Of a stretch of DNA of 64,000 nucleotides, positions 2,491 through 53,460 are shown one piece after another. The stretch's first letter is position 1, and every line of letters begins with the position of its first letter. The stretch spans positions 4,309,774-4,373,773 of the forward strand of contig NC_057718.1 in the NCBI RefSeq assembly GCF_004010195.1, read 5' to 3'. A program made the position numbers and the translations under genes. This stretch comes from Chiloscyllium plagiosum (lineage: Eukaryota). The notes under the pieces are model-generated. The model saw nothing but the letters and a program-made list of their open reading frames with translations. It made no database searches and was not told the origin of the DNA.

Positions 2491-5196
2491 TATTGTCCTT
2501 TAGGGAAAGAAATCTGCCATCATTACCTATCTGACCTACATGTGATTCCAGACCAACAGCAATGTAGTTGCTTCATAACTGCTCTCAAGAAAGCCACTCA
2601 GCTGAAGGGCAATCAAGGATTATACCTATTCACTTGGCACTCCCCCAGTTATTACATTGTCTTTGTCACAAATTCCAATAATTTATTGTGTAATGCCATG
2701 TACAACTAAGCCCAGCTGGGAGGCCTATAAACCATCACCAGCTTTTTCTGAACCTTGCTCGGCATGATCTCCACTCCTACTGTCTCAACACCATCACCAC
2801 TGTTGCATTGTCATCCTTTATTCTCAGGTCTACCTCCCATCCTTTACTCAGACCTCTCATATATTAAAGTTGATATTTCTCTGCGCCTTCTCTGTAGCTG
2901 TAACACCAAATTCTGCATTCTGTTCAATTACCCTGATCTACTTATGGAAGGTATGATTTGTATGGTTAGCATGCAAAACAATACTTTTCACTGTATCTCT
3001 GTACATATGACAATAATAAATCAAATCAAATCAAATCATTCTGTCTGCCTTTTAAAACTATGAGATTTGTGGAATGGGGCTTCTGTTTAGATTGTCACCA
3101 TGTAACAGTTTGATTGAAACCCTTTTGTTCCTTTCTCTCTCACAGTGTTGCTACCAAAGCCAGTATTTGTTGCCCATCCCTAATTGCCCTTGAACTGTGT
3201 GGCTTACTTGACCATTTCAAAGTCCACCACATTGCTTTGGGTCTGGAGTCACATGTAGGTCAGAAAATGTAGCAGATTTCCTTCCCCAAGTGGCATTAAT
3301 AATCCAGATGGGTTTTTTAATAACAATCAATGATAGTATCATGATCACCATCACTCAGTCTAGCTTTCAAGGGCAAATTTTGTAAAATCAAACTTAAATT
3401 CCACCAAATACTTCTTGAACCCATGTCCCCGGATCAGTATCCTAGGCCTCATGTGCATTAATCTCTTCACCTTCCCACTACACAACCATCTCCCTTTCTA
3501 TTGACCTGTCTTTGTGCCAAAATGATGCAATGTGTTTTAATTTACAGTTCCCTGCAAGGACCTCACTCTCTGATGCGCTATTTACTGCCAAACTCAATTA
3601 CAATAATGAGGACAAAATGTACACTGAGGAATCTCCTGTCAAAGCGCTCCCATTAAAATAATTTACATTTTTACTGTTTCTCGTTTCCCATGAATTAGTG
3701 TGAAGTGAGATTTCGATCCAGGTCAAGTTAGATAAACCTCCACACAGATAGTCTGTCCTCACAAAAATGATCTATTCTGTTGCTGCAGCCTTTATGTTTA
3801 GATTTTTAAATCTCCCTTCAGCAGAACACTCCTTGCCTGTCAGTTTAAAGCACATCTCCCTGCCCTGATATTATTAGCTGATGTTATGTTTCTCAACTCT
3901 CACCCTTCCTCTGGACAGGGCATCTATGGTTATCAGTGTTTGTACCTCAACCCTGTAACACTACCTTTCCTTTTATGTTTAACTTTCCAAATCTCTCCCG
4001 ATGAGAACACTGCCCTCTGTTACTGGGCAATGTTGGACTAACAAGGTAGATGAAGGAAGGATGTTCCCAATGGCGGGGGAGTCTGGAACCAGGGGTCATA
4101 GTTTAAGGATAAGATAAACCTTTCAGGACTGAGATGAGGAGAAAAGTCTTTACCCAGAGAGTGGTGAGCCGGTGGAATTCACTGCCACTGAAAGTAGTTG
4201 AAGGCAAAACATTATGTGATTTCAGGAAGGAGGTGGATATAACTGTTGTGGCTAAATAGTTGAAGGGATATGGGGGGGGAGGGGGGGGAGGGTGGGTGGT
4301 GAGGGTGGATGATGGAGGATGGGATTAAGGCTTGATAGTCTCCCATGGTCATATCAAATGGTGGAGCATGCTCAGGGGGTCAAATGTCTACTCCTCCACC
4401 TATCTTCTATATTTCTATGGTTGTTTGACATTATCTTTACAGCTCTCCTGTGAAATGACTCTGTTTGATATCTGAGTACAGGGTTAATCTGGAATCTATC
4501 CAATGGTGCTGATGAGACATCTAGTTTTCCATATCCCCTCAGCTTTATCTAATCCAAATCCACGCCTCCTTCATTGAGTGAAGTCCATTCTCCATCAACA
4601 TCTCCTGTAATATCTCTGCCTATGCCCCACCCCATTCCCACTCCTGACCTCCGGCTGACCCCGGGAATTCACTATTGACATGCCCATCATTCAGAATTTC
4701 CAAAATTGGGACCTTTGGCTTCTCCAAAGTAGGAGAGGCCTGTCAGCCAATCAGAGAGTCAGCTACTGTTCTGCCTCAGCAGCACCACCAGCACCGGTGG
4801 ACAGTTCTGGGACTGCAGCCATAACGAGATGGTTCCGAATGACAAACTGCAACAAAGGTGGGGTGGGCAACAATCCCAAAAAACCTCAAGGTTTGGAGGA
4901 TATTCTTCTTGAGGAGCAGATCTTACTGCTGGAGGAGATGTCGGTTGAGCACGGTGTGCCTGATCTCGAAGACTGCCATGTTATATTGGGAGATCTCCCC
5001 AGGAAGAAAAGCCCCCATTAGGCAGTAGAGGTGGGAAAGTCCCAGTCACAGCAAGTCGAAACACTGCCATCCCAGTGTGCCTGTCCCTGAGGGAGGGTGT
5101 AAGAATCTGGCCACAGAACCCTCCCAAGCAGTCCCTCCCCCGACTGGATGGGATACCCCCCCCACCCCCACCCCAAACACTATTGACAACTCTTAC

Positions 5197-6229
5197 TGAA
5201 AAGTCGGCATCCTCAGCTCGGAGATGGTTGGCGATGTAATGCACTCCTTCCAGTGCCCTGATGATGCTGGGTGATAATGGCAGACTGGCTCCTGTCTGAG
5301 TGATGTTACTAGCCCAGGCTCGGCGGCTGCCATTGACCATCCCCTCCGTGGATCTGCTGGGCTTGAGGCGACACGGGTAGCCAAGGGCACAAGGACTCAC
5401 CAGCCTGGGTTGGCAGGGGGGCAGGCCAAACCGGAGTTCCTCACTCCCTGAGGAAGGGCAGCATTTGGACGGCGCAAACTTTAACTCCAGAGGACTGAAA
5501 TGGTTGGTGAACGTCTCAGTTTTGGGTCTCGGTCTCTTCATGAACAGCCAGCGAGGGATGAAATCCAGGAAGACCTTCTTCACCCACCTGGGCATCTTGT
5601 GGGTGTTGGGCGAGCGGTGGTGGATGTTGAGGACAAAGACAGTGATAACAATGGAGAGCGTGACAAAGATCATGGTGAAGAGCAGGTATTCCCCGATTAA
5701 AGGGATGACCAACGAGGTCGAGGGGATGATTTCTGTAATAAGCAGCAGGAAGACAGTCAGGGACAGCAATACTGAGATACAAAGAGTAATTTTCTCTCCA
5801 CAGGCTGATGGTAAATGGAAGACCAAAACGGTTAAACAGGAGATGAGTAAACAAGGAATGATGAGGTTAATGGTGTAGAAGAGAGGGAGCCTCCTGATAA
5901 TGAAGGAGTACGTGATATCAACATACACCTCAAAGCAACAGTCATACTTCTTGCTGTTATAAACCCCCACTGTGTTGACTATCGCCCACTCGCCACTTTC
6001 CCAGTAGTCCTTAAGGTCTACATTCCTGCCCATGCTCCTCAGATCGATCTTGGACTTGTCGTGCGTCCAGGAGCCAAACTTCATTTTGCAATTCTGCTGG
6101 TCGAACGGAAAGAAGGTAACGTCGATGCTACAGGAGCTCTTGTAGATCGCCGGGGGCACCCACTGTACCTGGCCTGTCGAGAAGAGGTGAGCCTTCGTCA
6201 TGTGTGTCACTGCAAACTCACCATCTGCA
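5197..6229 (-). CDS. chrna2: chrna2 coding exon 5 (Cys-loop, loop C vicinal CC, M1-M3, cytoplasmic loop)
   Basis: [19 protein letters not shown]...[22 protein letters not shown]...YDCC...[10 protein letters not shown], flanked by CAG and GTAAGA. EFAVTHM, LFSTG, CKMK and [13 protein letters not shown] match alpha-2 rather than alpha-4. Confidence 0.95.
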
Positions 6230-6319
6230 CTGCAACAAACAAACAGGGCATGTTTACAGAGCCATTGGGCCCAGGGTTAAATCATCCACAAGGCAAAGCT
6301 CATCCAGCAAATCAATCAG

Positions 6320-7040
6320 AAGACCATAACAACAGGAGTAGGCCATTCATCCCCTCAAACCTGTTCATGGCTGATCCAACATCTCTCACATCTATTTTCC
6401 TGCCCTTTCCCTATAACTCTTGACCCTCAACTGATCAATGATCTATCTGTCTCAGCCTTAAATATACCCAAGGATGCTGCCCCTGCCTCTGTTGTAAGGA
6501 GTTCCAAAGACTCACAACCCTCTTAGAGAAGAAATTCCTCCTTGCCTCAGTCTTAAATTGGTGCCCCTTTATACTGAGACTATCCCTCTGGTTCTAGACT
6601 GTCCCATGAGGGGCAACATCCTCTCAGCACTCACCCTGCCAAGCCCCTTAATTATCCTCTGTATTTCAACAAGGTTGCCTCTCATTTTTCTAAACTCCAG
6701 TGAGTCAAGTCCCAAACTGTTTAGCCTTTGCTCGTAAGACATTCCCTCCAAACCAGGGATTATCCAAGTCAACCTTCTCAGAACTTCTTTCATTGAAATT
6801 ATATCTTCCCTTAAATTAGGGGATGAAAACTGCTGATAATACTCCAGCTGTGGTCTCCCCAGCCCCTTCCACTGTTGCTGTAAGATTTCCCTATGCTTAT
6901 CCTCCACCCATCTTGAAATAAGGGCTAACATTCCATTCCCCTTCCTGATTACCTGCTGCCCCCATACGCTAGCTTTCTGTGTTTCATTCACAAGTTCTCG
7001 TAAGTCCATTTGTGTTGCAGTTTTCTACAGTTTCTGTCTA
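6320..7040 (-). mobile_element. CR1 LINE 3' fragment (chrna2 intron)
   Basis: ORF 6569-7009 encodes a degenerate CR1 ORF2 C-terminus. Confidence 0.85.
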
Positions 7041-16034: not shown

Positions 16035-16201
16035 AACATCAGTGGTTGTGAGCAGCAGTGATTGTGAACAGAGGTCGTTGTGAATTGGAATGATTGCGAA
16101 CAGAGGTGATTGTGAACAGAAGTGATTGTGAGCAGTGATGATTGTGAACAATAATAATTGTGAACAGCAGTGAATGTGAGCTGATCAAAGCGATATCTCA
16201 C

Positions 16202-16353
16202 CACGTCAATAAGCTGTGCGATGGAAAGGCCAAAGTTGACAATGACAGCATCTGAAGCATTGGTGACAGGTCTGGACCACCGATTGTAACCAGTGAAGAG
16301 ATGTTTGAAGAGTCTCTCCTCAGCCTGAGAATGAGTCTTCTCCTGGCAATGGA
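16202..16353 (-). CDS. chrna2: chrna2 coding exon 2 ([50 protein letters not shown])
   Basis: 152 bp, acceptor TTTAG, donor GTGAG. Translation matches the N-terminus of nAChR alpha-2/alpha-4. Confidence 0.95.
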
Positions 16354-30059: not shown

Positions 30060-30213
30060 GTTTAGGGGCTTGGGTCTGTGATTTGAACTGGTTTAGACAG
30101 ATTTGAATAGATTTAGGGGTATGAAAAATCCCAGCAGAAAAATCCCAGTGTCCTAGGTGAGACAATCATTTTACTTTTGATGACTTGTGGTTGATTAAAT
30201 TAAAAGTGAGTGA

Positions 30214-31450
30214 AATGGCTCTTAAAATTGCTAAAAAGGTTCTGGGATTTGAAGATGATTCTCAAATTTGCCAAGAAAGTTTAGAAGGAAATAAAAAGGC
30301 CATACTTTTAGTATTAGCAAAGAAATTAGATTTGGATTTAACCAAAGACAAAAGTAAAGCTGAAATTGTAAGGGAGTTACTCAAACACTTAGGTGTGTCA
30401 GAGAAACAGACAAGTGCAGTCGAGGTAGAAAAACTTGAATTACAATTGAGAAAAATGGAGTTAGAAGATAAACAAAGGGAGAGAAAAAGAGAAAGAGAGT
30501 GAAAAGAGAGGAAAACCAGAGAGAGAAGGTTCTTACCTGAGCAAAGAGAGAGAGAAGAAAGAGAGAGAGAAGAGAAAGAAAGCAAGAGAGAATTTGAACT
30601 TCAGAGGTTGCGACTTAGTCAGCAAAGTCAAGTTAACAGGATAGAGATTAAAAGAGAAGGTAATGATATACACAAATATTTCAAAACTCTGTCACATTTT
30701 GATGAGAAAGATATTGAAGCCTTCTTTATTTCATTTGAAAAATTGGCTAGGCAGATGGAGTGGTCCAAGGATTTATGGGTAATGCTAGTTCAGACTAAAC
30801 TGGTAGGCAGAGCTAGTGAGGTATTTGCCGCACTGTCAGATGAGGTGTCAAGAGATTATGAAGAGGTTAAGCAGGCTATTTTAAGTGGTTATGAATTGGT
30901 ACAGAAGCATAGACAGCGGTTCAGAAATACAAAGAAGGAACCAGGTCAGAATTATGCTGAATTCGAAAGAATTAAACATAGTCATTTTGATCAATGGCTG
31001 CGTGTTTTGAAAATAGATAGGACCTTTGAGACTTGAACAGAGATTGTTCTGCTGGAGGAGTTTAAAAACTCACTTTGAGGGATGGTAATTCACGTGGAGG
31101 AACAGAAAGTTCAGGAAGTGAGAAGGGCAGCAGAATTAGCAGATGAGTACATGTTGCTGCATAAGACAAGTTTCCAGCCAGAATTTCATCCTGTGAGGGA
31201 TAGAAGTTGGGAGAAGGGGAGATCCTACACTATGAAAGCAAGAGTAGGGAGCACAGGTAAGATTTTACCACAGGATAAAAAGAAGCTTGAGAGAGTGGAA
31301 AGGAGATGAAAGGCATCAGGTGTTTCCACTGTGTCAAAGTGGGACACGTAAAGTCACAGTGCTGGTCATTAAAGAAAGGTGCTGTGGGAAAAAATGTGGT
31401 AAAAGAAGCTAAGCCAGTTGCATTCGTGAAGGTAATAAAGGATACCCCAT
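30214..31450 (+). pseudogene. gag remnant (SCAN-like capsid, zinc knuckle)
   Basis: FDEKDIEAFFISFEKLARQMEW...LVGRASEVFAALSDEVSRDYEEVKQAIL; CFHCVKVGHVKSQC at about 31321. Disrupted frames. Confidence 0.85.
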
Positions 31451-31520
31451 GAAGAGTTGAGGAGCTGCAGGAGACTGGCACAGCCTAGGCAGGGGCTGGG
31501 TATGGAGTTAGTACCTGATC

Positions 31521-32034
31521 CTATCGGAAAGATGTTGTGAAACTTGAAAGGGTTCAGAAAAGATTTACAAGGATGTTGCCAGGGTTGGAGGATTTGAGCT
31601 ACAGGGAGAGGTTGAATAGGCTATGGCTGTTTTCCCTGGAGCGCTGGAGGCTGAGGGGTGACCTTATAGAGGTTTATAAAATCATGAGGGGCATGGATAG
31701 GATAAATAGACAAAATCTTTTCCCTGAGATGGGGGAGTCCAGAGCTAGAGGGCATAGGTTTAGGGTGAGAGGGGAAAGATATAAAAGTGACCTAAGGGGC
31801 AACATTTTTACGCAGAGGGTGGTACATGTGTGGAATGAGCTGCCAGAGGAAGTGGTGGAGGCTGGTACAATTGCGACATTTAAAAGGCATTTGGATGGGT
31901 ACATGAATAGGAAGGTTTAGAGGGATTTGGGTCGAGTGCTGGCACTAGATTGGTTTGGGATGTCTGGTCGGCATGGACAAGTTGGACTGAAGGGTCTGTT
32001 TCCATGCTGTACATCTCTATCACTCTATGACTCT
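31521..32034 (+). mobile_element. CR1 LINE 3' fragment inserted inside the Gypsy element
   Basis: LERVQKRFTRMLPGL...RGNIFTQRVV C-terminal ORF2 motif plus the CR1 3' tail. Confidence 0.9.
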
Positions 32035-32039
32035 ACAAA

Positions 32040-34190
32040 GAATTCACCTCTATGGGGAAAGTTTACTCAGAAAGAACAGGGGGAGAAGGGAAAGAAGTTA
32101 TAATCTTAAGAGATACAGGATCTAACCAGTCACTGATAGTAAGGGATGAACAAATTTACACTCTTTCTGATTTGTTATCTGAGAGTGTGGTCATTTGTAG
32201 GATAGATGGACAGAAATGTAGTGTTCCCCTATGCAAGATCAGGTTGGATTCCCAACTCAAGACTGGGGAAGTTTCAGTGGGAATGATTGACAGAGTGTCA
32301 GATCCAGGAATTCAGTTTGTTCTTGGGAATGATTTGGCAGGATCCAAGTTACACCTCTTGTTGTCAAGAAGCCCAAAGAAGACCAAGAAACTGAGGAGTT
32401 AAAACAGAAATATCCTGGCATTTTCCCAAACTGTATGGTAACCAAATCCCACCATCATAATTCACAGCACGAAACAAAAAGTAAAGAGAAAGATGAAGGA
32501 GTTGAGGTTCAGTTAGTGGGTACTCTGTCTGACATAATGATGCAGGAAAATCCTGAACAGGCGGAGGGTCAGACAGAAGTGCATGGTCCTGAAAGACGAA
32601 TAGACTTTCAACAACAAAACAGGATGATAAAAGATATATGTGGATGTGTACTCAAAAAAGAGGCAGAGAATATTCCAGACGGTTATTATCTGAAAGATGG
32701 AATCCTAAGGCAAAAATGGAGGCCATGGCAGGTTAGTGCAGAGGAGAAATGGGCCAAAGTGCACCAGACTGTTTTGCCGGGAGTGTTTCGGGAACCACAC
32801 AAATTCCCAGAAGGAGGTCACCTAGGGGTACGAAAAACTCAGGCTAAGGTGCAGAAAAGTGTTTATTCGCCTGGAATGCACAAGGATGTGGTTAACTTTT
32901 GCCATACATGTCATACACGCTAAATACATGAAGTAGATGTGGGGAATACTGCTCCAATAAACAGCACCCCTATTGACTTAATCCTCTCAAAGCCAGACAG
33001 GTCCAGATGGAGGTGGAGGGCATGCTCAACAAGGATGTCATTGAACCAAGCCAGAGCGAGTGGAGTTCGCCGATCGTCTTAGTGCCCAAACCAGACGGGA
33101 CCCAGCAATTCTGCGTAGATTATTGGAAGGTCAACACCATTACAAAATCAGATTCGTATCGAATTCCTAGATTGGAGGACTGTATCGAGAAAATTAGGCA
33201 AGCCAGTTACATCACCAAGTTGGACTGAAAGCGTGGTTACTGGCAGGTACCTTTATCAGAGACAGCAAAAAACATTTCTGCGTTTGTAACCCCAAATGGG
33301 GTATATCAGTTTGGAATGAAGAACGCACCCACCACATTCCAAAGCCTCATGAACAGAGTTGTGGCTAGGTTAACAAACTGTGCAGTCTATTTGGACGATG
33401 CAGTGATCTTTAGTGAGTCCTGGAAAGATCACATGGTACAGTTGGCAGAGGTCTTTGAACAACTATGAGAAGCAAAACTGGTGATGAACTTAAATAAAAC
33501 TGAATTTGAGAAAGCAGAGGTGATGTTCTTGGGACATAACATCGGTCATGGAAGATTGACCCCATGGAACGTAAAAATGAAGGTGATTAAGAAATTTCCA
33601 TGACTAATCTGAGAAAAGAGGTGCTTCCATTCTTGAGCCTAAGCGGATTCTATCAAAAAGTTTGTTCCAAACTTCAGCAGTGTCATGGCACTATTAACTG
33701 ATTGGCTGAAGAAGAACACAAAGTTTCGGTGGACAGAATAATGCTGGGAGGCATTTGACCATATGAAAACAATATTTGCCCTCGCATCAGTTTTAGCTAC
33801 ATCAAACGTTTCAAAACATTTTCAAGTGGCCATCAATGCTAGTGACATCAGAGTAAGAGCTGTACTGCTGCAGGAAGATGAGGATGGGATTGAATTGTCA
33901 GTTACTTTTCAAATAATTTAACATCCACCAGGAGAAATACTCCACAATCTAAAAGGAACTATTGAGTTTGATACTGGCCTTACAACATTTTAACATGTAT
34001 GTCATGAACAATTTGTCAGAGATGGTTGTGTACACAGATCACCATCCACTTACATTCTTAGAACACTGTAAAAACAAGAATATGATTCTATTTCATTGGA
34101 GTCACATGTTACAGACTTTTAACTTAAACATCATACATTTTTAACTTAAAAATCATAAGAATGTAATCGCAGATGTGTTATCACGGATTT
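32040..34190 (+). pseudogene. pol remnant: protease, integrase Zn finger, RT, RNase H
   Basis: ILRDTGSNQSLI; HLGVRKT...FCHTCHT; IEPSQSEWSSPIVLVPKPDG...FCVDY; AVYLDD; VYTDHHPL. Confidence 0.88.
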
Positions 34191-34378
34191 AACTGATAAA
34201 GTTTAGATGAGATTTGTATTTATTTAATTTTTTTTATATATACACACAGGTATATGGGAAGAAGTTACGGTGAACTTATATTAAACTTTCTGTATGTTAA
34301 GGTAATGTGTTTAAAAATGAAGAAAAAGAGAAGCCATCTTTTCATTGTGATGGTTCACTTTTTTTCTTGAGGGAGAGG

Positions 34379-35376
34379 TGTTATGATAGTGTATTACACC
34401 TTTAAGAGAGTGAAGGAGTAGGCAAGCACACTGAGTGCTGGAGACTTTATGGTGTAACATTTAGTTCAGAACAGATAGCACTGGCACAGTTGCTATGAGA
34501 TAAAAACAAATTCGAATTTGGCCAATCAGTTTAAATTATACCCCCAAAATACCAACCTCCAATCAAGTTTGAATTCAGTATATTGACAATCTTAAAAGCC
34601 AATGATGCTTTGGGGGTATAAGACCAGGGAAAATTGAACAACTGGGAGGAGAACTGCCAAGCCAGCATGTAGAGACTGCCCGGAAAATAGCTCTCTTAAA
34701 AGTACGCCTATTGATCAGTGACATGTGAAGCAGAAATCCCTAAGAAGAAGAAAAGAAGTCCAGAATACCAGGGACAGCACGATGGCTCAGTGGTTAGCAC
34801 TGCTGCCTTACAGCGCTAGGGACCCAGGTCCAATTCCAGTCTCAGGCAACTGTCTGTGTGGAGTTTGCACATTCTCCCTGTGTCTGTGTGGGTTTGCTCT
34901 GGTTTTCTCCCACAGTCCAAAGATGTGCAGGTCAGGTGAATTGGCCATGAGAAATTGCCTATAGTTTTAGATGCATTGGTCAGAGGGAAATGTGTCTACG
35001 TGAGTTACTCTTCGGAGGGTTGGTGTGGACTTGTTGGGCTGAAGGGCCTGTTTCCACACTGTAGGGGAATCTAATCTAATACAGAGAAGAACTAAAAGCT
35101 GCCTGGTTTTGTGATAAGAAATTTTGTTTCATAAATCTTAATCGCTGGTCTTATCAGACTAGTATTGTAGAAGGGGAAGGTAAACGATAGGTTCGAGGAA
35201 GGAGTTGTAAATAGTTGTCAGTTAATCATTCTCTGTTATAAATTAAAAAATAAAGTTGTTACTTTTTACTAAAAAACACTCTTGGCCTCTCGAATGTTCA
35301 CAGATTACTGCATGGGATTAATCCTTTCTGTGTTGCTGATTTAAATTAGCAGGAGGGTTTACTCTGTGTTGTAACA
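34379..35376 (+). repeat. 3' LTR, interrupted by a SINE
   Basis: TGTTATG...TGTAACA; extra SINE at about 34760-35079 that is absent from the 5' LTR. Confidence 0.92.
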
Positions 35377-37330
35377 AGATAGAAGGCTCACTGGTTTATC
35401 CCTGGATCCTGTCATGCAATTCCATGTTCTAAAGAAATATTTACTATTTCAGGGTATTCTTTGGAAAATTATTGTTAGGGTTCCTGCAATGTTTTCATCC
35501 TTTAAAATCCTGGATGGAAACCATCTGGTATTGGGGAATTTGTTCTAATTTTAGGGTCATTATTTTCTTCATACCTGTTTTTTTGCTTTTGTTCATTTTA
35601 GCTCTATCCTTGATCCAACAGTGGGGCTTTCCAAGAGCTATTTGGCCTGTTGACCTCCTTTAAACTCTGGCACAGAATCACCATTCAGCTGGATTGTCAT
35701 TTAATCATTTCTATTTCCATTGGTTTTCATGCCAAGTCTCCAATCTTTTTCACCCTAATATAATAATTAAAAATGTTTATGTTGATTTTAATAATGTTTG
35801 CAAATGTCTTTAAATTGCTGCTCAGTGGTTAGCACTGGTGCCTCACAGTACCAAGGTCCCAGGTTCGATTCCAGCCTCGGGCGATTATCTGTGTTGAATT
35901 TACACGTTCTCCCCATGTCTGTGTGGGTTTCCTCTGGGTGCTCCGGTTTCCTCACACAGTCCAAAGATGTGCAGGACAGGTGAACTGGCCATGCTAAATT
36001 GCCCATAGTGTTAGGTACATTAGTCAGAGGGAAATGGGTCTGGGTAGTTTACTCTTGGGAGGGTCGGTGTGGACTTGTTGGGCCGAAGGGCCTGTTTCCA
36101 CACTGTAGGGAATCTAATCATTCCTAATCTAATCATGTTGTGTGGTTGGTATCATTTGTTTTGCCAACTTTTTCTGAAGGTTGTAACACAATATTCCTGA
36201 GATCAATACAATGCAAGTGAAAGGGACTGTCCGGGGTTAATCATACAGTCATGGAACAATTCTTGGCAACCACCAATGTAACCTTTTCATTCTTCTGCAA
36301 CCTTAGAATTTTTGTTAACCTCTGAATCATCAGGATTTATGTCATTGGTTACAAATTTGAAAGCTTCTTTTATTTTTCTGTTGCCTCGTAACACATTAGT
36401 CATCCATAAACTGTTTCTTTGTAAGTAAGCTGGCCCATGGGGTAAAATTTGCTTCTCCATCCATAAAGTCCTTTTTGAACACCTCACGTTCTTCGTTCCC
36501 TATTGACTGATTTGCTCAGTTTACAGATCGCATTGAAGTTGAAATAACTCTTACATAGGCCATTATCCTGTCAGCAAGTCACTCTTCATTTACACGTGCA
36601 GAGTTCTTAACACTGCAGAACCCCTGACACTCCTGTTCATTCGGGTCAGCCAGGGCTCCCTGAATGGACCAGATTAACAGCCCCATTCAGAGACCTTTCA
36701 TTCTATGATGTCCACCTGACTGACCCCGTTACAATCGATACAGAGCGAGCTAGCATCTGAGCAGCTCTTTTATTTTCTTTCCATTTTAAACATTACATTA
36801 AACATAACCTCATTATGATCATTGTTCAGTAATTATTCACACATTGTTAGGTTCTTAACTAACTTCATCTCATCATTAAATTTAATATGTAGGTTCTGTG
36901 ACATATTGTTGCCAAAAACTTTCCCAAGCATATTCATGAAATTCCTTATTTTGTCAGCCATGTCTGTTCATTAGGTCTACATGTAAGTTCAAATATAGCA
37001 CATCCTCTAAATCTCTGCCCTGAAACATTTGCTGACTTGTGTGATGGCTATATCATTTTGGGATGCAATTTTTTTAAACACAAGTTTCAATTTGGAGAAA
37101 TTCTGGATCAACTGCACTCGGGATGTGGGGTTCCTGATCATCATGAAGTGGGGTGATATCGAGTAAAGATCAAAGACTCCCTTGTACAAAGTCCTTCTTG
37201 AGAAAATAGACCAGAGCAGCACTGTGAGAACCAAGGGACCATCTGACCCTTGAAACGCTGAAGAGTCCCATTGAGGGAATATTTACCAGGTGACCACATC
37301 CCAGAATGCAGCAAAGATCGTTTCTCATCA

Positions 37331-37336
37331 TTTATT
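37331..37336 (-). terminator. Candidate polyadenylation signal for the secreted-protein gene
   Basis: AATAAA on the minus strand about 420 bp after the stop codon. Confidence 0.45.
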
Positions 37337-37756
37337 GAAATGTTACAACTTCATATGAGTTTGAACATATGCAGTAAGTGAATAGTGAGCAGGTTTTAAT
37401 ATCATTAGCAAGCTGTTTGGAAACATGACCCTTTATATGGCATGACTGGGAAACTTAAAATGGGTGCAGGCAGTTGTTGATGTGTTGGTAATACACTGGG
37501 CCACCAACTAAAAGTATACAGTGAATAAATTGGAACAGAACAAAGAACTGAACTTAGACCAATAGAGAGAGAGTAGAAAGGATTTGTCAGGCTAAAGAGC
37601 ATTGCACATGGGAAATAGTGGCTGGTGTTTTTCGCTCATGTTTTGACCGTTTCTGCTAATACTGGAACCTCGTCAAGAAAATGAATCTGAGCATCACAGA
37701 TGTGAGCTGATTGCTAGTGAGATGTGGTGTCTAACAAGCAGCCTGCCAGCTGCCCC

Positions 37757-37910
37757 TCAGTTCTGGTATTGGATAGACTCCATTGTGTGAGACTTGCCCA
37801 TATGTTGGCTCAGTTCTGTTGAAAGAGTGTCTGACAGCTCCTCGACCTGGCTGGCAAGGAGATGGATGGCCTGCAGCATCGTGTCCATCTTCCAAACCTT
37901 CTCCTTGAAC
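37757..37910 (-). CDS. Uncharacterised secreted protein, coding exon 2 (KFKEKVWKMDTMLQAIHLLASQVEELSDTLSTELSQHMGKSHTMESIQYQN*)
   Basis: Acceptor CCTTTGTTAG, phase-compatible with the previous exon, amphipathic heptad pattern, TGA at 37757-37759. Confidence 0.75.
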
Positions 37911-38029
37911 CTAACAAAGGAGAGGACATTACTGATAGAGGATCAACCTGAAAACAACCTGTCGAGATCCACCAATCCTGCTACTGCAAAAAACCAACTC
38001 AAGGAAATATATTATTCACACATAATAAT

Positions 38030-38466
38030 ATGCGGAAGAAGCTTTACCCTGTATCTAACTCTGTGCTGTCCCTGTCCTCGGAGTGTTTTGATGGGGATAG
38101 TGATGAGACCGTTTTACTCTGTATCTAACCCATGCTCTCCCGATACTGAGAGTGTTTGATGGGGATAGTGTAGAGCAAGTTTTACCCTGTACTTAATCCT
38201 GTGCTGTCCCTATCCTGGATGTGTTTGATGAAGTCAGTGTAGAGGAAGCTTAACTCTGGGTGGTCCCTGTGCTGGGAGTGTTTGATGGGAGGACAGTGTA
38301 GAGTGAACTTTACTCTGTATCTAACCCCGTGCTGTCCCTTTCCTGAAAGTGTTTGATGGGGCCAATGTTGGGGCAGCTATACCTTGTGTGCTTCCTATCC
38401 TGGGAGTATTTGATGGGGACAATGTAGAGGAAGTTTTGCTCTGTATCTAACTCCATGCTGTCCCTG
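38030..38466. repeat. About 65-70-bp satellite-like array (also at 23185-23360)
   Basis: Repeated CTGTATCTAACCCCGTGCTGTCCCTGTCCTGGGAGTGTTTGATGGGGACAGTGTAGAG. Confidence 0.88.
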
Positions 38467-38890
38467 CTCAGTGGGTATTTAATGAGTAACTATGTGCCAC
38501 AGAAAGAAATGTTTCTGGTTCTAAACAAACACAGAAGTTGCTGGAGAAACTCAGTGCATCTGGCGGCATCGATGGAAGAGAGAAACAGCTAATGTTTCCA
38601 GTTGAATATGACTCTTTTTCTGAGCTCCCATTTGCAAAGTACTTATGTCCAGCATCTGCATTACTCTGCTTCAATTGGAAGGTTTCTATCACATGTCCCT
38701 GGTGCCCCACCCCTTTGTATTTGCTGGAGTTAAGCCCACAATCAGACCAGTTGTGATCTTATTACATGTTGGGGCAGATCCAAGGCAGTCTGTTCCAGCT
38801 CATTCCCACCTTGTAATGTCTGTAGCTATAACATTTCAGTGGTAAAGGCTAAACTTTTCCAAACCTTCATATATGCAGCTCAGTACTTAC

Positions 38891-39354
38891 TTTTTCACAT
38901 GGTTATTTGATGTTGGTTCTGAGTCAAGGGCTTGGAAGATTTCTGTCATGATGTTATTGGATAGCTCATTCTGTTGCTTAATGTCCAGGACTGTGGTGGT
39001 GATTAACGATTGGTAGCTCACTTTCCCAGTCTCTTCATTAACTGCAGTTGCTAAGCTCTCCAGAATAGAACTGCTGCCATTCAGGAGATTCTTGACGGGA
39101 TTGAGATCCTCCTGAATCAGGGAGCTAATAGCTTCCTGCTCACTGGGGATGGTTATGGAGCTGGTCAGCACTGTAATCTCACACACACTTGAGAGCTCCG
39201 GGATTCCTAATCCAGCTGCATTCTCAGGCATGAGCGTGTTGTTCAAAAGCATGGGGAAGAGAGGATCTGGAACATTAGTCTCTAACGTATAATCATCTCC
39301 AGCCTTCACCATGTAGACTCCCAGAACAAAGTGCAAGATCCACAGGAACCTCAT
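38891..39354 (-). CDS. Uncharacterised secreted protein, coding exon 1 (154 codons + 2 nt)
   Basis: Acceptor TCTTAG at 39361, then GTTACC-ATG. Hydrophobic signal peptide MRFLWILHFVLGVYMVKA. Non-repeat open frame ending at donor AA|GTAAGT (38890), phase 2. Confidence 0.8.
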
Positions 39355-39709
39355 GGTAACCTAAGAGTGAAATCAGTTAGAATTTCCATAATCTCATTTT
39401 TCATCACCAAAGTCCCAACTATTCCTAACCCATTGCAGTTTCTGGCTGGCTTCCCACTGGAACTCACAGCCTCTGTGTGTTTCAGTGTTCCCCTTTACTA
39501 TGTGTACAGATACAGGAGCTAACGCTGGGACACACACACACACACAGACCAGGCAGTGAATCATTCCCTTTCACTGGCTGTGTGCACTTGGACACTGAGA
39601 TACACAGAATATTGAAAAATAGCAAGTCCAGAAGAATCAAGACAGATTGTCTCAATTGCTGACTCAAGCTGACGTTTGAAAAAATGTTTAATTTTCTGAA
39701 ATCACCTCA

Positions 39710-39960
39710 AGCAACAAACCTGACACACATTCATCAGATATACACACACTGTCAGATATACACACACTGTCAGATACACACACCACCAGATATGTAAACA
39801 CAGCATACACATTAGATATATACACACAATATACTCATAGTCAGATACACATACACATAACACTCTCACAGTCAGATATACACATACATAACACACACAG
39901 TCAGGTATACACATAATCAGAGTCACACACACAATGCATATCATCAGATACACAGACAGA
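39710..39960. repeat. Degenerate CA-rich low-complexity repeat
   Basis: CAGATATACACACACACTGT-like units. Confidence 0.75.
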
Positions 39961-40789
39961 ACATGGACCTCATATTTGGAAAGAGCTCATTTGATGAGCA
40001 GAAATATTACCTGAAAAAAATGTTGTTGTTAATAGAGACCAACTTCTCAGATGGCTGCAGTTTCTCTGTCAGAAACACTCGCTACTTTCCTGGCTGAATG
40101 AAGTTTTAGCTGTTTACAGTTCCCTGTTATCCTGCCTAATAGAGACAGAGAGGCAGTGGGAGTTTGAAATTCTGATGTTCCAACCCCCTTTCTTTGATGC
40201 TGAGTTGTTCTGGGGCTCCTGTTGTGTTAGTTATTTTTCACAGGCAGCTTCATAGTTCAATTTCCACATCTGTAAGATGTTAATGAAATCTCGCTGCAGA
40301 CAGGACGTGGAGCTAAATACTGGCCGCAGTATTGATTCTTAAAGTGACAGTGATACCAGAAACATGCTGTTCAATTTGGGAGGGGGGGGTTTGATGAGGG
40401 GGAGCTGGGATTGTGATACAACTGAGTGTTCCCTTCAGAGTTCAATGAGTCTTTGCAGACTTACATTGCTCCCCTGTCCTACAGTTCCTCGATGTTAACA
40501 TTCTCATCATCATGTTCAAATTTCTCCATCACTTCATCTCCCCCTAGCTCTGTTACGTTCTCCAGCCCTCAGAGAAGATATCAGTCTTCAGCATTTTGCT
40601 GATGTTAATCACTCCCCTGTGATGTCCATGTCTCCAGCTGTCTGGGATCTAAGATCTGGAATTCCATCCCTAACACTCCCTTGTCTGTCTCCCTCCTCCT
40701 TTCTGATGCACTTTTATGCTTACATTTTTGACAAGATTTTTAATCACCAGAATTCAGATCTCCAACATGAAACAATTGATCACCATACC

Positions 40790-41415
40790 TGGGAGGTACT
40801 TGCCTTTATTGGTCAGTACATTGAGTAAAGGAGTTGGAATGTCATGTTGTGGCTGTACAGGACATTATTTCGGCCACTTTTGGAATATTCCTTACAATTC
40901 TGGTCTCCCTGCTACAGGAAAGATGTTGTTAAACTTGAGGGGTTCAGAAAAGATTTAAAAGAATGTTACCAGGGTTAGAGGGTTTGAGATATAGGGAGAG
41001 GCTGAACAGGCTGGGGCTTTTTTCCCTGGAGCGCAGAGGCTGAGGGGTGACCTTATACAGGTTTATAAAATCATAAAGGGCATGGATAGGATGAACAGCC
41101 AAGGTCTTTTTCCCAGCGTAGGGGAGACCAAAACTAAGGTGATTTGGGAAAGATTTAAAAGAGAACTAAGAGGCAACTTTTTCATGCAGAGGGTGTTGCA
41201 TGGATGGAATGAGCTGCCAGAGGAAATGGTGGCGGCTAGTACAATTGCAACATTCAAAAGGCATCTGGATGGGTATATAAATAGGAAGGGTTTAGAGGGA
41301 TATGGGCCAAGTGCTGGCAAATGGGACTAGATTAGTTTAGGGTATTTGGTCAGCATGGGCAAGTTGGACCAAAGGGTCTGCTTCAATGCTGTGTATCTCT
41401 ATGGCACAATGACAC
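40790..41415 (+). mobile_element. CR1 LINE 3' fragment
   Basis: RGNFFMQRVLHGWNELPEE motif. Confidence 0.88.
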
Positions 41416-42609
41416 TGCCCTGTTGAATGGCAGCGCCTCCCGTAGTTTAGCACAGGTCACCAGGATGATCAGGGAAAACTGCCCTGCCAAAAACTACAAG
41501 CCCTAGTGCCACATGATGGTTTCACGTATGGCATTTGTGATAAAATCCCCTCAGGGACTGGCCTGTTAGTCACCGGTGATGGTGCTCTATGTCAGGAGGC
41601 AGCAGCTGAAATGGACTGAAGAAAATGAGCAGAAGAAAACAGACAAGGAGCTCAATGTCAGAGTTTGCTTGGCAGTGCTGCTGTGTAGCAGATGGTGATA
41701 ATTTCCTATACTCAAGTAATTATTTCAATGCAAGTTATTGTTGTTAAGAGTGAACTAGTTGAGATTAACCTCTGACCCTTCCCTTGACTAACACCTGAGT
41801 CTCCGTGGCAATGCCTCTTGCTGTTGCACCCTCATGGATACCTGGCTACACCTCAATCTCCTCCTCACTCCCAAACCCCCAGTAACACCTGTTCCATCCC
41901 TTTCAGCAATTCTTTGTGATACCTGTACCATGCCCACATAAACCTCACCGTCCAACAATGATTTCCTCATGGCAATCTTTCTCCCTCATCACTTCAAACA
42001 GCTCCTCATCCTGAGTGCCTTCAACCTTCATCTAAACTCTGTCCTCACCTTCATTACAAATTGTACCCTCTACCTTGATCCACTTCACTCACTGTCTCTC
42101 TGATTTTGACAGTTCCCTGTGCAATCCCTTTCCCCTTGCCGTACCCCATCTTCCCCTGATTGATCTGTGCCTTTCACCCCAAAAACAATATGGCTGACTT
42201 CAAACTCTCCAACTGAATTCACACATTCCTTCCCAAACAGTGACCCTCTCCAGAGGCCCCTCACCCCTCTCAGCCCTCCCTACATGCACCAGTCACCTCT
42301 GGATAAATGACCCCCATGCTAACTCCTTAACTGATTCACTAATCCCTCTCCATTCAGTTTCCCCTCATCCAGCCAGAATCACAAAGTGCCCAGCGACAGG
42401 AACCAGTCAACAATGGCAAAGAATGGCTTCACGGGCCAACTGGAAAGACCATTCCCCTCAAGGAGATGCCTTAATTTGGAGTCAGAAATCTAGCGGTGAA
42501 CAGAGAGTAGTTAGAGAAGCTGGCTATCTCGCATCTCTCTGAACAAACATCTGCCACAGCATCCCTTTTTTCTCTTGACTCTTGGCCTTTGACCCCTTTG
42601 CTGTCAAGA

Positions 42610-43695
42610 AATGGTAGACAGGATGGTGAAGAAGGCATTTGGTATGCTTTCCTTTTTTGGTCAAAGCATTGAGTATAGGAGCTGGCAAATGGGACTAGAT
42701 TAGTCTAGGATATTTGATCAGCATGTTGCGGCTGTACAGGATATTGTCTCGGCCACTTTTGGAATACTGTGTTCATACCTGGTCTCCCTTCTCCCTGGAA
42801 GGATATTGTGAAACCTGAAAGGGTTCAGAAAAGATTTACGAGGATGTTGCCGGGATTGGAGGGTTTTAGATATAGGGACAGGATCAATAGGCTGGGGCTG
42901 TTTTCTCTGGAGCACCGGAGGCTGAGGGACGACCTTATAGAGATTGATAAAATCATTCTGGGCATGGATAAGGTATATAGGCCTTATTTTCCTGTGGTGG
43001 AGGAGTCCAGAACTAGAGGGCATAGGTTTAGGGTGAGAGGGGAAAATTAAAAGTGGACCTATGGGACAACTTTTTCACACAGAGTGTGATGCATATATGG
43101 AATGAGCTGCCAGAGGAAGAGGTGGATGCTGGTACAATTACAACATTCAAAAGACATCTGGATGGAAATATGAATATGAAGGGTTAGGAGGTATATGGGT
43201 CGGGTGCTGGCAGGTGGAATGAAATTAGGTTCGGATATCAGCCCCTCACGCCGTGAGCCTTTCCTCCCTCCACTCCAACACTGGTGTTGTCTCCCCAGGG
43301 ACAATTCGATCTACCACACAGAATCATAGAGATGTACAACACGGAAGCAGACCCTTTGGCCCAACCCATCCATGCTGACCAGATTACCTAACCTAATCTA
43401 GTCCCATTTGCTAGTACTTGGTCCATGTCCCTCTAAACCCTTCCTATTTATATCTCCATCCAGATGCCATTTAAATGTTGCAATTGTATCAGCCTCCACC
43501 ACTTCCTCTGGCAGCTCATCCCATACACGCACCACCCTCTGCGTGAAAAAGTTGCCCCTGAGGTCTATTTTAAATCTTTCCTCTCTCACCCTAAACCTAT
43601 TCCCTCTAGTTCTGGACTCCCTCACCCCAGGGAAAAGATCTTGGTTGTTCACCCTATCCATGCTCCTCATGATTTTATAAACTTCCATAAGGTCA
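42610..43695. mobile_element. Two CR1 fragments in opposite orientation (+ 42610-43230; - 43320-43695)
   Basis: The same ORF2 C-terminal motifs occur on both strands. Confidence 0.85.
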
Positions 43696-44711
43696 CTGTT
43701 CAGCCTCTGTCTGCCACTCTGGTTGTATGGAATGAGTCTTTAGATTTCCATTTGCCCTCTTGAACAATCATTGCCCGGTTGTTCACCCTATCCATGCTCC
43801 TCATGATTTTATAAACTTCCATAAGGTTATAAAGGTTCAGCCTCTGTCTGCCACTCTGGTTGTATGGAATGAGTCTTTAGATTTCCATTTGCCCTCTTGA
43901 ACAATCATTGCCCCTGCTTGAGACAACTGTTAATATTGAGGTGTCAGTCAGTGATGTTAATGGTTGTGATGGTGGGTCTGCTCGCTCACTATTGTCACCA
44001 ACCCTCGGCTCTGATACACAGTGCACTTTCTGGATGGAAATGGTTAATGGAAAACTGGTGAGGTTGGAGCTGATGGGGAGCACAGTGTATCCTCCCTGCT
44101 CAGTTTCTATTGACATTAACATTTAGCTCTAAGGCAGCCCACAACATTCCTCATTAAATTCACAACATTCTGGAAACATTGCATGGTTAATCAGACAGAC
44201 TGGGCAATATTCCAGAGTGAGTCAGACTCCTTGGCTTCCACAATTTAACAGATCTGGAAGAGTAGGGTTCATACTCAGAACACCAGCAGCTGAGCAGTTT
44301 TATCTGGAGGTCATTTTATCAAGGTAGGATAAGAGCTGGGGAGCATTTAAATGCTCCAATTTACTTGGTGTTTTATACTGTTCTTCTAAACAAGTGGATA
44401 GACATGCACAAACCCAATGGGAACATTCTGAGTGACAATTGTAATCATAGTTAAAAATCACACAACACCAGGTTATAGTCCAATAGTTTGATTTGGAAGC
44501 ACTAGCTTTCATAGCATTGCTAGTGCTTCCAAATAAAGCTGTTGGATGATAACCTGGTGTTGTGTGATTTCTAATTTTGTCCACCCCAGCCCAATGGCAG
44601 CATCTCCACATCATCATTATAATCATGGACTGAATGAGAAGGAGCTGGGTGTTTTGGTCAAGGGGGGGGAACCCAGACTGGGGAAGATGGAATTTGAGAT
44701 TTGAATAGGTC

Positions 44712-52624: not shown

Positions 52625-53460
52625 GAGTCAAAGAGTCATTTACAGCATGGAAGCAGACCGTTTGGTCCAGCCCGTCCATGCCGACCAAACATCCTAAATT
52701 AATCTAGTCCAATTTGCCAGCATTTGGCCTGTATCCCTCTGAACCCTTCTTATTCATATACCCATCCAGAAGCGTTTTAAATGCTGTAATTGTACCAGCC
52801 TCTACCACTTCCTCTGGCAGCTCATTCCATATATACACCACCCTCTGTGTGAAAATGTTGCCCCTACGGTCCCTTTTAAATCTTTCCCTCTCACCATAAA
52901 CTTATGCCCTCTGGTTCTGGACACCCTCATCCTAGGGAAAAGACCTTTTCTGTTTATCCTAACCATGCTCCTCATGATTTTATAAACCTCTATAAGGTCA
53001 CCCCTCAGCCTCTGACGCTCCAGGAAAAACAGACCCATCCAGATACCTTTTAAATGTTGTAATTGTTCCGGCCTCCACCACTTCTTCTGGCAGTTCATTC
53101 CAGACATGCAACACTCTCTGCTTGAACGATTTGCCTCTTAGGTCCCTTTTCAATCTTTCCCATCTCACCTTAGTTTTGGTCTCCCCTACGCTGGAGAAAA
53201 GACCTTGGCTGTTCATCCTATCCATGACCCCGATGATTTTGTAAACCTCTATAACATCACCCCTCAATCTCCGATGCTCCAGGGAAAACAGCCCCAGCCT
53301 GTTCAGCCTCTCCCTATAGCTCAAATCCTCCAACTCTAGCAACATCCTTCTAGCTCTTTTCTGGACCCTTTCTAGTTATACAACATCCTTCCTATTGCAG
53401 GAAGACTAGAACTGAACACAGTATTCCAAAAGTGGCCTAACCAATGTCCTGTACAGTTCT
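52625..53460 (-). mobile_element. CR1 fragment with an internal duplication
   Basis: The RLRGD(L/V)IEVYKI block occurs twice; junction at about 53035. Confidence 0.85.

Follow-up and report, generated by a model that had tools for sequence, protein, structure and literature searches.

A spliced shark gene upstream of a neuronal nicotinic receptor gene and its probable kinship with Fibin

Gene structure, transcripts and the encoded protein

We analysed a gene on the minus strand of a 64,000-nucleotide (nt) stretch of the Chiloscyllium plagiosum genome, hereafter the window, in which all coordinates are given. The gene has three exons, two of them coding, and is spliced and transcribed. We consider it likely that this real shark gene is the orthologue of a single-copy family of jawed vertebrates, named so far only through clone or LOC designations, and that the family is in turn distantly paralogous to Fibin (PF15819), from which it differs in having introns and in evolving faster. 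The features of the gene are collected in Table 1.

A first-pass annotation, made from the sequence, had proposed two phase-compatible exons with canonical splice sites and a well-placed ATG directly after an acceptor, and the model stands on the minus strand at the predicted coordinates. The ATG at 39354 has the context gttaccATGa, with A at -3, and lies six bases past the AG of the acceptor at 39361/39360. The exon 2 donor reads AAAAA/GTAAGT at 38891/38890 and the exon 3 acceptor tttgttAG/G at 37911/37910, with the reading frame ending in a TGA that finishes at 37757. The coding parts, 39354..38891 and 37910..37757, are 464 and 154 nt long, so that the split codon 155 (AA/G) rejoins in phase. 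The spliced translation has the 205 residues predicted, and all 205/205 match P0003, an NCBI entry named 'uncharacterized protein LOC122552568 [Chiloscyllium plagiosum]'. The gene had been called unrecognised, which does not hold, as the same 205-residue model was already in NCBI as an uncharacterized LOC. When P0003 was compared with the 3.56-Gb shark assembly the matches were confined to its own two exons, and the same search of the assembly gave no intronless copy.

Table 1 Features of the gene in the window
Feature	Position	Strand	Basis
5' untranslated exon	40011..40151, 5' end reaching at least 40151	-	Contig joint and X1 record 2 to 40151; GT donor at 40010
Intron 1, 650 nt, GT..AG	39361..40010	-	Skipped in X1, X5 and X6 contigs; X15 record 11 (39005-39505) unspliced across the acceptor
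Exon 2: start codon 39354, residues 1-154 and two bases of codon 155	38891..39360	-	Sequence, database identity, contigs
Presumed signal peptide, residues 1-18 (MRFLWILHFVLGVYMVKA), cleavage before G19	39301..39354	-	Inferred from sequence
N-glycosylation sequon N38-N-T, 20 residues N-terminal of Cys58	39235..39243	-	Conserved in alignment
Cys58 codon, sole Cys, family-invariant	39181..39183	-	Aligned to Fibin Cys52
Intron 2, 980 nt, GT..AG, phase 2, with high-copy repeat array at about 38039-38485	37911..38890	-	Skipped in X1, X5 and X6 contigs; X15 records 9 and 10 within the intron
Exon 3 coding: last base of codon 155, residues 156-205, TGA	37757..37910	-	Sequence, database identity, contigs
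3' untranslated region as far as contigs extend	37014..37756	-	X1 record 2 begins at 37014, X5 record 15 at 37019

Transcript evidence came from four public runs (X1, X5, X6 and X15), which we compared over the region 36300-42300. X1, X5 and X6 belong to three studies with two organism labels, and none of the runs is recorded as RNA. Contigs of these three runs share two joints, 37908->38889 and 39358->40009. With the cut moved by +2 these become 37910/38891 and 39360/40011, each GT..AG on the minus strand, and the predicted 38891/37910 junction is thereby present in contigs from three studies. One X1 contig of 1508 nt spans 37014-37908, 38889-39358 and 40009-40151 as a single molecule. In X15 both joints are absent; its contigs 37649-38049 and 39005-39505 cross the two acceptors and a third, 38316-38854, lies within intron 2. 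Thus, X15 behaves like genomic DNA because its contigs are unspliced, while X1, X5 and X6 are taken to be RNA because theirs are spliced.

The 5' exon, at least 141 nt long, and the 6-nt leader that follows it contain no ATG, which makes the predicted ATG at 39354 the first in the mRNA. In a separate X5 contig, 877 nt long, 21 letters of exon 2 are joined to a 5' exon extending to 40848 (region 40009-40848). The depth of this contig is 63.9 against 1573.5 for the coding contig, and it may reflect either a minor start site further upstream or a longer leader in the organism concerned. In some orthologue models, among P0008 (239 residues), P0007 (220), P0005 (207) and P0015 (331), translation is annotated to start ahead of the conserved Met, so that the signal-type segment would become internal. 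Such N-terminal additions probably reflect choices made in annotation or the use of alternative first exons.

Differences between X5 and the window served as a stand-in for the ratio of nonsynonymous to synonymous substitution rates. They amount to 10/443 coding bases, 34/807 bases of mostly 3' untranslated region and 17/378 intron bases, and the three listed coding differences comprise two synonymous changes and H191R. At the 3' end, the AATAAA reported downstream of the frame is present at 37336..37331 on the minus strand. Its use as a poly(A) signal is not demonstrated, because the X1 and X5 contigs continue past it to about 37014-37019. A scan of 34000-44000 with Rfam returned 0 matches at the gathering score.

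The composition of the protein is as the first-pass annotation described it. There is one Cys (Cys58) and there are two sequons, NNT at 38 and NGS at 92, and from residue 19 onward the chain is acidic (isoelectric point 4.33) and rich in L, S, E and T. Residues 3-17 are hydrophobic, with a mean Kyte-Doolittle value of 1.75, small residues occupy positions -3 and -1 of the presumed cleavage site (V-K-A/G), and a hydrophobic N-terminus is seen in all aligned orthologues. We presume from these sequence features an N-terminal signal peptide that is cleaved after Ala18. The hydrophobic N-terminus, the conserved sequon and the conserved Cys together agree with the secretory character that had been suggested. 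The amphipathic heptad helix proposed for the C-terminus is also found. In the best register of helix 150-204, 73% of the a/d positions are hydrophobic versus 23% elsewhere, a separation equalled by 6/2000 shuffles. The same test was not significant for the two earlier helices, being equalled by 155 and 915 of 2000 shuffles.

We used AlphaFold2 (AF2) to explore the structure. The model from 36 sequences has a mean predicted local distance difference test score (pLDDT) of 66.9 and a predicted template modelling score (pTM) of 0.30, improving on an earlier, poor model from 12 sharks (pLDDT 53.7). Helices are predicted at residues 75-111, 114-144 and 150-204, with pLDDT 67-92 over residues 81-205, and a further helix at residues 2-18; residues 19-76 lie below 50. 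The model forms no compact monomer fold, and the combination of low pTM and confident helices fits a protein whose arrangement needs partners. Structural comparison was uninformative about fold: for the AF2 model, Foldseek found nothing in the PDB at an expectation value (E) <= 0.001 (best 0.71), and VIA-align against 48,161 chains gave unrelated helical hairpins over residues 112-205 with a best Z of 8.9, which is under the level of about 13 for helical models and indicates a generic two-helix arrangement only. A sequence search of the PDB with residues 1-154 returned 0 matches at E <= 10, and a Pfam scan of the exon 2 translation returned nothing. The exon 3 translation matched Sigma54_AID at E 0.0094, which we took as chance.

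Orthologues from sharks to alligators

The first-pass annotation had considered the protein lineage-restricted, a description that its distribution contradicts. A search with residues 1-154 recovered 12 shark proteins of 205-239 residues, at 51-100% identity and E 5.7e-91 to 1.5e-33, two of which carry the NCBI name 'si:ch211-142k18.1'. Their alignment contains 56 invariant columns, mostly within residues 83-188. The reading frame is therefore conserved among related sharks, and it is kept beyond them. A profile of the 12 sharks was run against 1.84 billion representatives and gave 12 matches at E <= 0.001: bowfin (3.7e-15), salamander (4e-13), lungfish (2.2e-12), sturgeon (2e-11), caecilian (1.5e-10), frog (2.1e-9), the amphisbaenian Rhineura (5.6e-9), catfish (1.1e-7) and alligator (1.4e-5), the remaining three being elasmobranch or unnamed records. 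A wider profile of 19 sequences gave 57 matches at E <= 1 among 8000 scored candidates, drawn from sharks, many anurans, catfishes, a characiform, electric eel, cyprinids and unnamed assemblies.

The orthologues thus range over sharks, rays, bowfin, sturgeon, otophysan teleosts, lungfish, amphibians, an amphisbaenian and alligators. Mammals and birds occur in neither the 12-match nor the 57-match list. The first search used a shark-only profile, for which alligator already stood at 1.4e-5, and the wider one needed shared words, so that mammals and birds are to be read as not seen rather than absent.

A maximum-likelihood tree was built from 30 of the 36 aligned members, chosen for taxon spread, together with two shark Fibins; it leaves out six near-duplicate frogs and one cyprinid and has one sequence per species. 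Elasmobranchs (support 100/98), ray-finned fishes (93/95) and tetrapods (92/97) each form a clade. Within the ray-finned fishes sturgeon branches first, then bowfin, then the teleosts, and the lungfish stands alone on a long branch. The elasmobranch stem is long (1.47), and Fibin falls outside the family on a long branch. When the caecilian protein was searched against the whole shark genome, only the LOC122552568 locus was found (E 0.023, 25.4 bits).

The tree thus agrees with the species tree, and such a topology, with one sequence per species and a reciprocal match, is the pattern predicted by orthology. The si:ch211-142k18.1 proteins also match the profile over their full length, have a single copy in the shark and share its invariant residues. 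The bony-vertebrate si:ch211-142k18.1 and LOC proteins and the shark gene most likely belong to the same orthologue group, as judged from these comparisons.

The Cys is invariant in 36/36 members, and Leu101, Tyr114 and Ile118 are invariant too. N38 is invariant in 12/12 sharks, and its sequon occupies the same column in all 10 elasmobranchs of the 36-member alignment and in bowfin, sturgeon and lungfish. Of the 36 members, 16 have a second Cys. In most frogs it sits 12 residues after the first (+12), which is the spacing of Fibin Cys64, and in the other members that have it the distance is +10 to +16; relative to the bony-vertebrate members, the elasmobranchs have lost it. About 10-20 residues past the presumed cleavage site, the bony-vertebrate orthologues carry 'QSG[DE]' and a second 'GSG' amid acidic residues (consensus QSGDxxxxDxGSG), whereas the shark protein (KAGDDY...) lacks both. 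Acidic Ser-Gly motifs of this kind resemble glycosaminoglycan attachment sites, and the members that carry them might be part-time proteoglycans.

The family is poorly characterised, as had been supposed. We found no paper on the si:ch211-142k18.1/LOC family in a literature search that did not extend to supplementary tables, so the gene may appear in expression tables. Neither the gene nor its family assignment is wholly new to databases, given the NCBI LOC model and the Fibin tag that Pfam places on many frog orthologues.

Relationship to Fibin

The first-pass annotation had recognised no family. We find instead a probable distant member or sister of the Fibin family. A Pfam scan of 19 members at E <= 10 matched PF15819 in 6/19, with a best E of 4.4e-6, and the next best families reached 0.0023 and 0.004. 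When 14 of the 19 were rescanned at E <= 1, five matched PF15819, whose cut-off is 27 bits: caecilian (27.0 bits), frog (26.9), salamander (25.8), sturgeon (21.4) and stingray (15.1). These five matches are collinear over profile positions of about 31-177 of 190 and start at the conserved Cys. Precomputed PF15819.11 annotation is present on 24/57 relatives, all 24 of them anuran or unnamed.

We compared the family directly with Fibin of the same species. PF15819 has one match in the shark genome, of 329.5 bits, in a single open frame on another contig. This is P0053, a protein of 205 residues named 'fin bud initiation factor [Chiloscyllium plagiosum]', so that the shark carries both genes. Against P0053, a hidden Markov model (HMM) of the 36 family members reaches 28.7 bits in a match that covers Fibin residues 42-198, compared with 7.8 bits for the highest-scoring composition-matched shuffle (3000 made, 2599 scored). 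Homology with the same-species Fibin was found only with this whole-family profile. An amphibian-only HMM gives 21.8 bits to Fibin versus 66.7 bits to the window protein, which indicates that the amphibian proteins are kin of this gene and not Fibin orthologues.

Alignment of the family with Fibin by hhalign gave E values of 1.5e-4 and 1.8e-4, and both hhalign and hmmsearch align Cys58 to Fibin Cys52. In the ESM Atlas, residues 1-154 found Fibin clusters first, at 0.87. Full-length P0003 lies nearest a Fibin cluster at 0.95, with 221/256 features shared, and Fibin clusters score 0.94-0.95; shuffled proteins are said to reach 0.95 about once in 100. The same atlas places the cluster 'Uncharacterized protein si:ch211-57n23.1' (225 residues, 65 members, chordates) at 0.93 to P0003, with 205/256 features shared, and this may be a third Fibin-like family in fishes.

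Several observations weigh against kinship with Fibin. The window protein itself has no PF15819 match at E <= 10 and so stands below the 27-bit gathering score. BLASTP of the shark protein against shark Fibin gives E 2.6 at 15% identity, and the two hhalign probabilities are 51% and 49%. An elasmobranch-only HMM scores Fibin at 1.1 bits (rank 63 among 2325 scored), a ray-finned-fish HMM at 5.8 bits versus 7.3 for the best shuffle, and the shuffles, which break helical periodicity, are a lenient null. The second Cys of Fibin, Cys64, is missing in all 10 elasmobranchs including the window protein, and the gene has a phase-2 coding intron and an intron in its 5' untranslated region, whereas shark Fibin is one open frame. 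Finally, secretion of Fibin is itself disputed (PMC10278231).

Since the elasmobranch-only HMM misses Fibin, the sequence link of the shark protein is transitive through its bony-vertebrate orthologues, and the direct backing for the shark protein itself consists of the language-model features only. The weak direct signal fits the long elasmobranch stem and the faster rate of evolution.

An alternative is that this is a real secreted helical family unrelated to Fibin, whose likeness would be convergence among small, acidic, signal-peptide-bearing coiled-coil proteins. Such an account would explain why shark protein and Fibin lack a direct match, why hhalign stays at about 50% and why gene structures differ, and members do weakly match other helical families (NPV_P10 at 0.0051, ApoLp-III at 0.012). 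Convergence does not sit well with the pattern of matches. Fibin is the family matched by most members (6/19), with a best E about 500 to 1000 times better than that of other families, and the PF15819 matches run collinear over most of the profile from the conserved Cys. Most frogs have the second Cys at +12, as in Fibin, a sequon lies about 20 residues ahead of the Cys in both, and the language-model features, which are independent of any alignment, reach 0.95. We therefore regard an origin apart from Fibin as unlikely.

It is very unlikely that the main kinship of the protein is not with Fibin but with the N-terminal domain of olfactomedin proteins (Noelin-1, PF12308), which combines Cys and a coiled coil and builds disulfide-linked oligomers. 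Signal peptide, Cys and long helices are a shared layout, the ESM Atlas places Noelin-1 clusters at 0.85-0.87, and one Noelin-like cluster has PF15819 on 12% of its members. Against this, the Fibin clusters score higher, at 0.94-0.95, the 25 families shown when the 19 members were scanned at E <= 10 do not include PF12308, which is matched by 0/14 of those scanned at E <= 1, and the protein ends at residue 205 with no olfactomedin domain.

An intracellular coiled-coil protein of Snapin/BLOC-1 type is extremely improbable: it is suggested only by the automatic UniRef name of alligator P0028, 'Biogenesis of lysosome-related organelles complex 1 subunit 7', on a protein without a Snapin-type Pfam match at E <= 1, while all members start with a hydrophobic signal-like segment and the sequon is conserved in fishes. 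We rejected that label for want of Pfam support, and also rejected the UniRef name 'Angiopoietin-1' on Bagarius P0062; both are likely automatic mislabels of a helical protein. A chance open reading frame on a non-coding transcript, for which the lack of a Pfam match is the only argument, has a negligible probability, since sharks, alligators and the groups between them all retain frames of 205-220 residues in which Cys, Leu101, Tyr114 and Ile118 never vary, and 12 sharks share 56 invariant columns.

Genomic surroundings, proposed mechanism and known systems

The Fibin-like gene lies upstream of a gene for an alpha2/alpha4-type neuronal nicotinic acetylcholine receptor subunit. An alpha-subunit exon lies at 4984-6276 on the same, minus strand, and a further receptor-like open reading frame piece at about 16100-16300 (-). 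The best PDB matches of the 4984-6276 exon are alpha-4 (3.2e-139) and the alpha-2 ectodomain (2e-67 over its shorter length), and the PDB search cannot distinguish the two because only the alpha-2 ectodomain has been solved. The label chrna2 for this neighbour, given in the first-pass annotation, is plausible.

Repeats are abundant around the gene. The array in intron 2, at 38039-38485, is made up of direct repeats that have degenerated and whose periods are about 57-69 and 126-138 nt. Summed contig depth over it is thousands-fold above the flanks in all four runs and rises to 291,050 in X15, an extreme that indicates an element dispersed through these shark genomes in a very high number of copies. 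Another repeat of very high copy number, at 40722-41525, reaches a depth of about 3 million in X15 and is also seen by eye at 1-652, 1932-2207, 6572-7024, 31519-31917, 42718-43047, 43401-43739 and 52805-53375. Its open reading frame includes a motif resembling 'RLRGDLIEVYKI..GMDR'; the motif is found again in many open reading frame fragments of the window on both strands, and by eye the repeat looks like the tail of a retrotransposon open reading frame. At 30161-32920 (+) there are frames of 113-196 residues in which one stretch is rich in Lys and Glu. Judged by eye, they also contain a region resembling the capsid and protease of a retroelement, with many Cys and His residues at its end, and this is probably a decayed element of the long-terminal-repeat type. 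The remaining neighbourhood is rich in retrotransposon-like open reading frame fragments.

Taking the sequence features and the Fibin comparison together, we infer signal cleavage, glycosylation, dimerisation, possible release from the cell and a possible signalling role for the shark protein, and propose the following mechanism. The N-terminal 18 residues would direct the chain into the endoplasmic reticulum (ER) and be cleaved after Ala18, and Asn38 would be glycosylated. A flexible acidic stretch would lead to Cys58, where an interchain Cys58-Cys58 disulfide would join two chains. The helices at about 75-111, 114-144 and 150-204 would pack between the chains, so that the C-terminal two thirds form a helical or coiled-coil stalk. 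The product may then work in the secretory pathway or extracellularly as a dimeric glycoprotein that signals or associates with the matrix, which is the role suggested for Fibin.

Placing the gene in this way would give a family assignment to a set of 'uncharacterized LOC' annotation models. The si:ch211-142k18.1 family offers knock-out targets in zebrafish and Xenopus, and mammals and birds may be an example of its loss.

We compared the protein with known systems. The N-terminal domain of olfactomedin proteins (Noelin-1, PF12308) resembles it in being part of a secreted chain in which N-terminal cysteines for covalent oligomers are followed by a coiled coil. It differs in that the shark protein has neither a Pfam match to it nor an olfactomedin beta-propeller.

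Fibin offers the closer parallel. According to Lakner et al. 2011 (PMC3115872), the signal peptide of Fibin comprises residues 1-18 and is cleaved, Asn30 is glycosylated, and Cys52 and Cys64 form interchain disulfides, with single Cys mutants still dimerising. The same paper describes the protein as mostly retained in the ER in COS-7 cells and the gene as intronless, states that Fibin 'lacks structurally related paralogs', and proposes that a covalently linked partner is needed for its secretion. Links of Fibin to zebrafish fin bud initiation and to mouse cardiomyocyte hypertrophy are described in PMC10278231. The possible disulfide-linked oligomer of the first-pass annotation, which we place at Cys58, would fit the published interchain disulfide of Fibin Cys52.

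The two families also differ in rate and range. Identity between Chiloscyllium and Rhincodon is 79% for the protein described here and 96.6% for Fibin, and this family is not seen in mammals and birds, which have Fibin. An evolutionary account that we hold to be improbable makes the intron-bearing gene the ancient sister of FIBIN and possibly its parent, with intronless FIBIN a retrocopy that predates the split of sharks and bony vertebrates. The intron-bearing gene would then have survived in lineages from sharks to crocodilians, whereas mammals and birds would have lost it or changed it beyond recognition. In the boldest form of this idea, both products would pair through the shared cysteine, and the shark protein would be the type of covalent partner proposed for Fibin secretion.

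Comparison of the two families brings out a shared plan. Each is about 205-220 residues long and starts with an N-terminal signal-type segment, which is followed by a sequon about 20 residues before the conserved Cys (N38 and Cys58 here, a spacing of 20; NGT at 30 and Cys52 in Fibin, a spacing of 22). Tyr114 (S-Y-Q), an invariant residue of the first long helix, is matched in the alignments by the S-Y-G of Fibin, and the rest of the protein is helical and collinear. A sister family across jawed vertebrates would provide a comparison that points to the core of the Fibin fold and function, namely the features common to both families: the first Cys, the position of the sequon, the S-Y-Q/G helix and the C-terminal helices.

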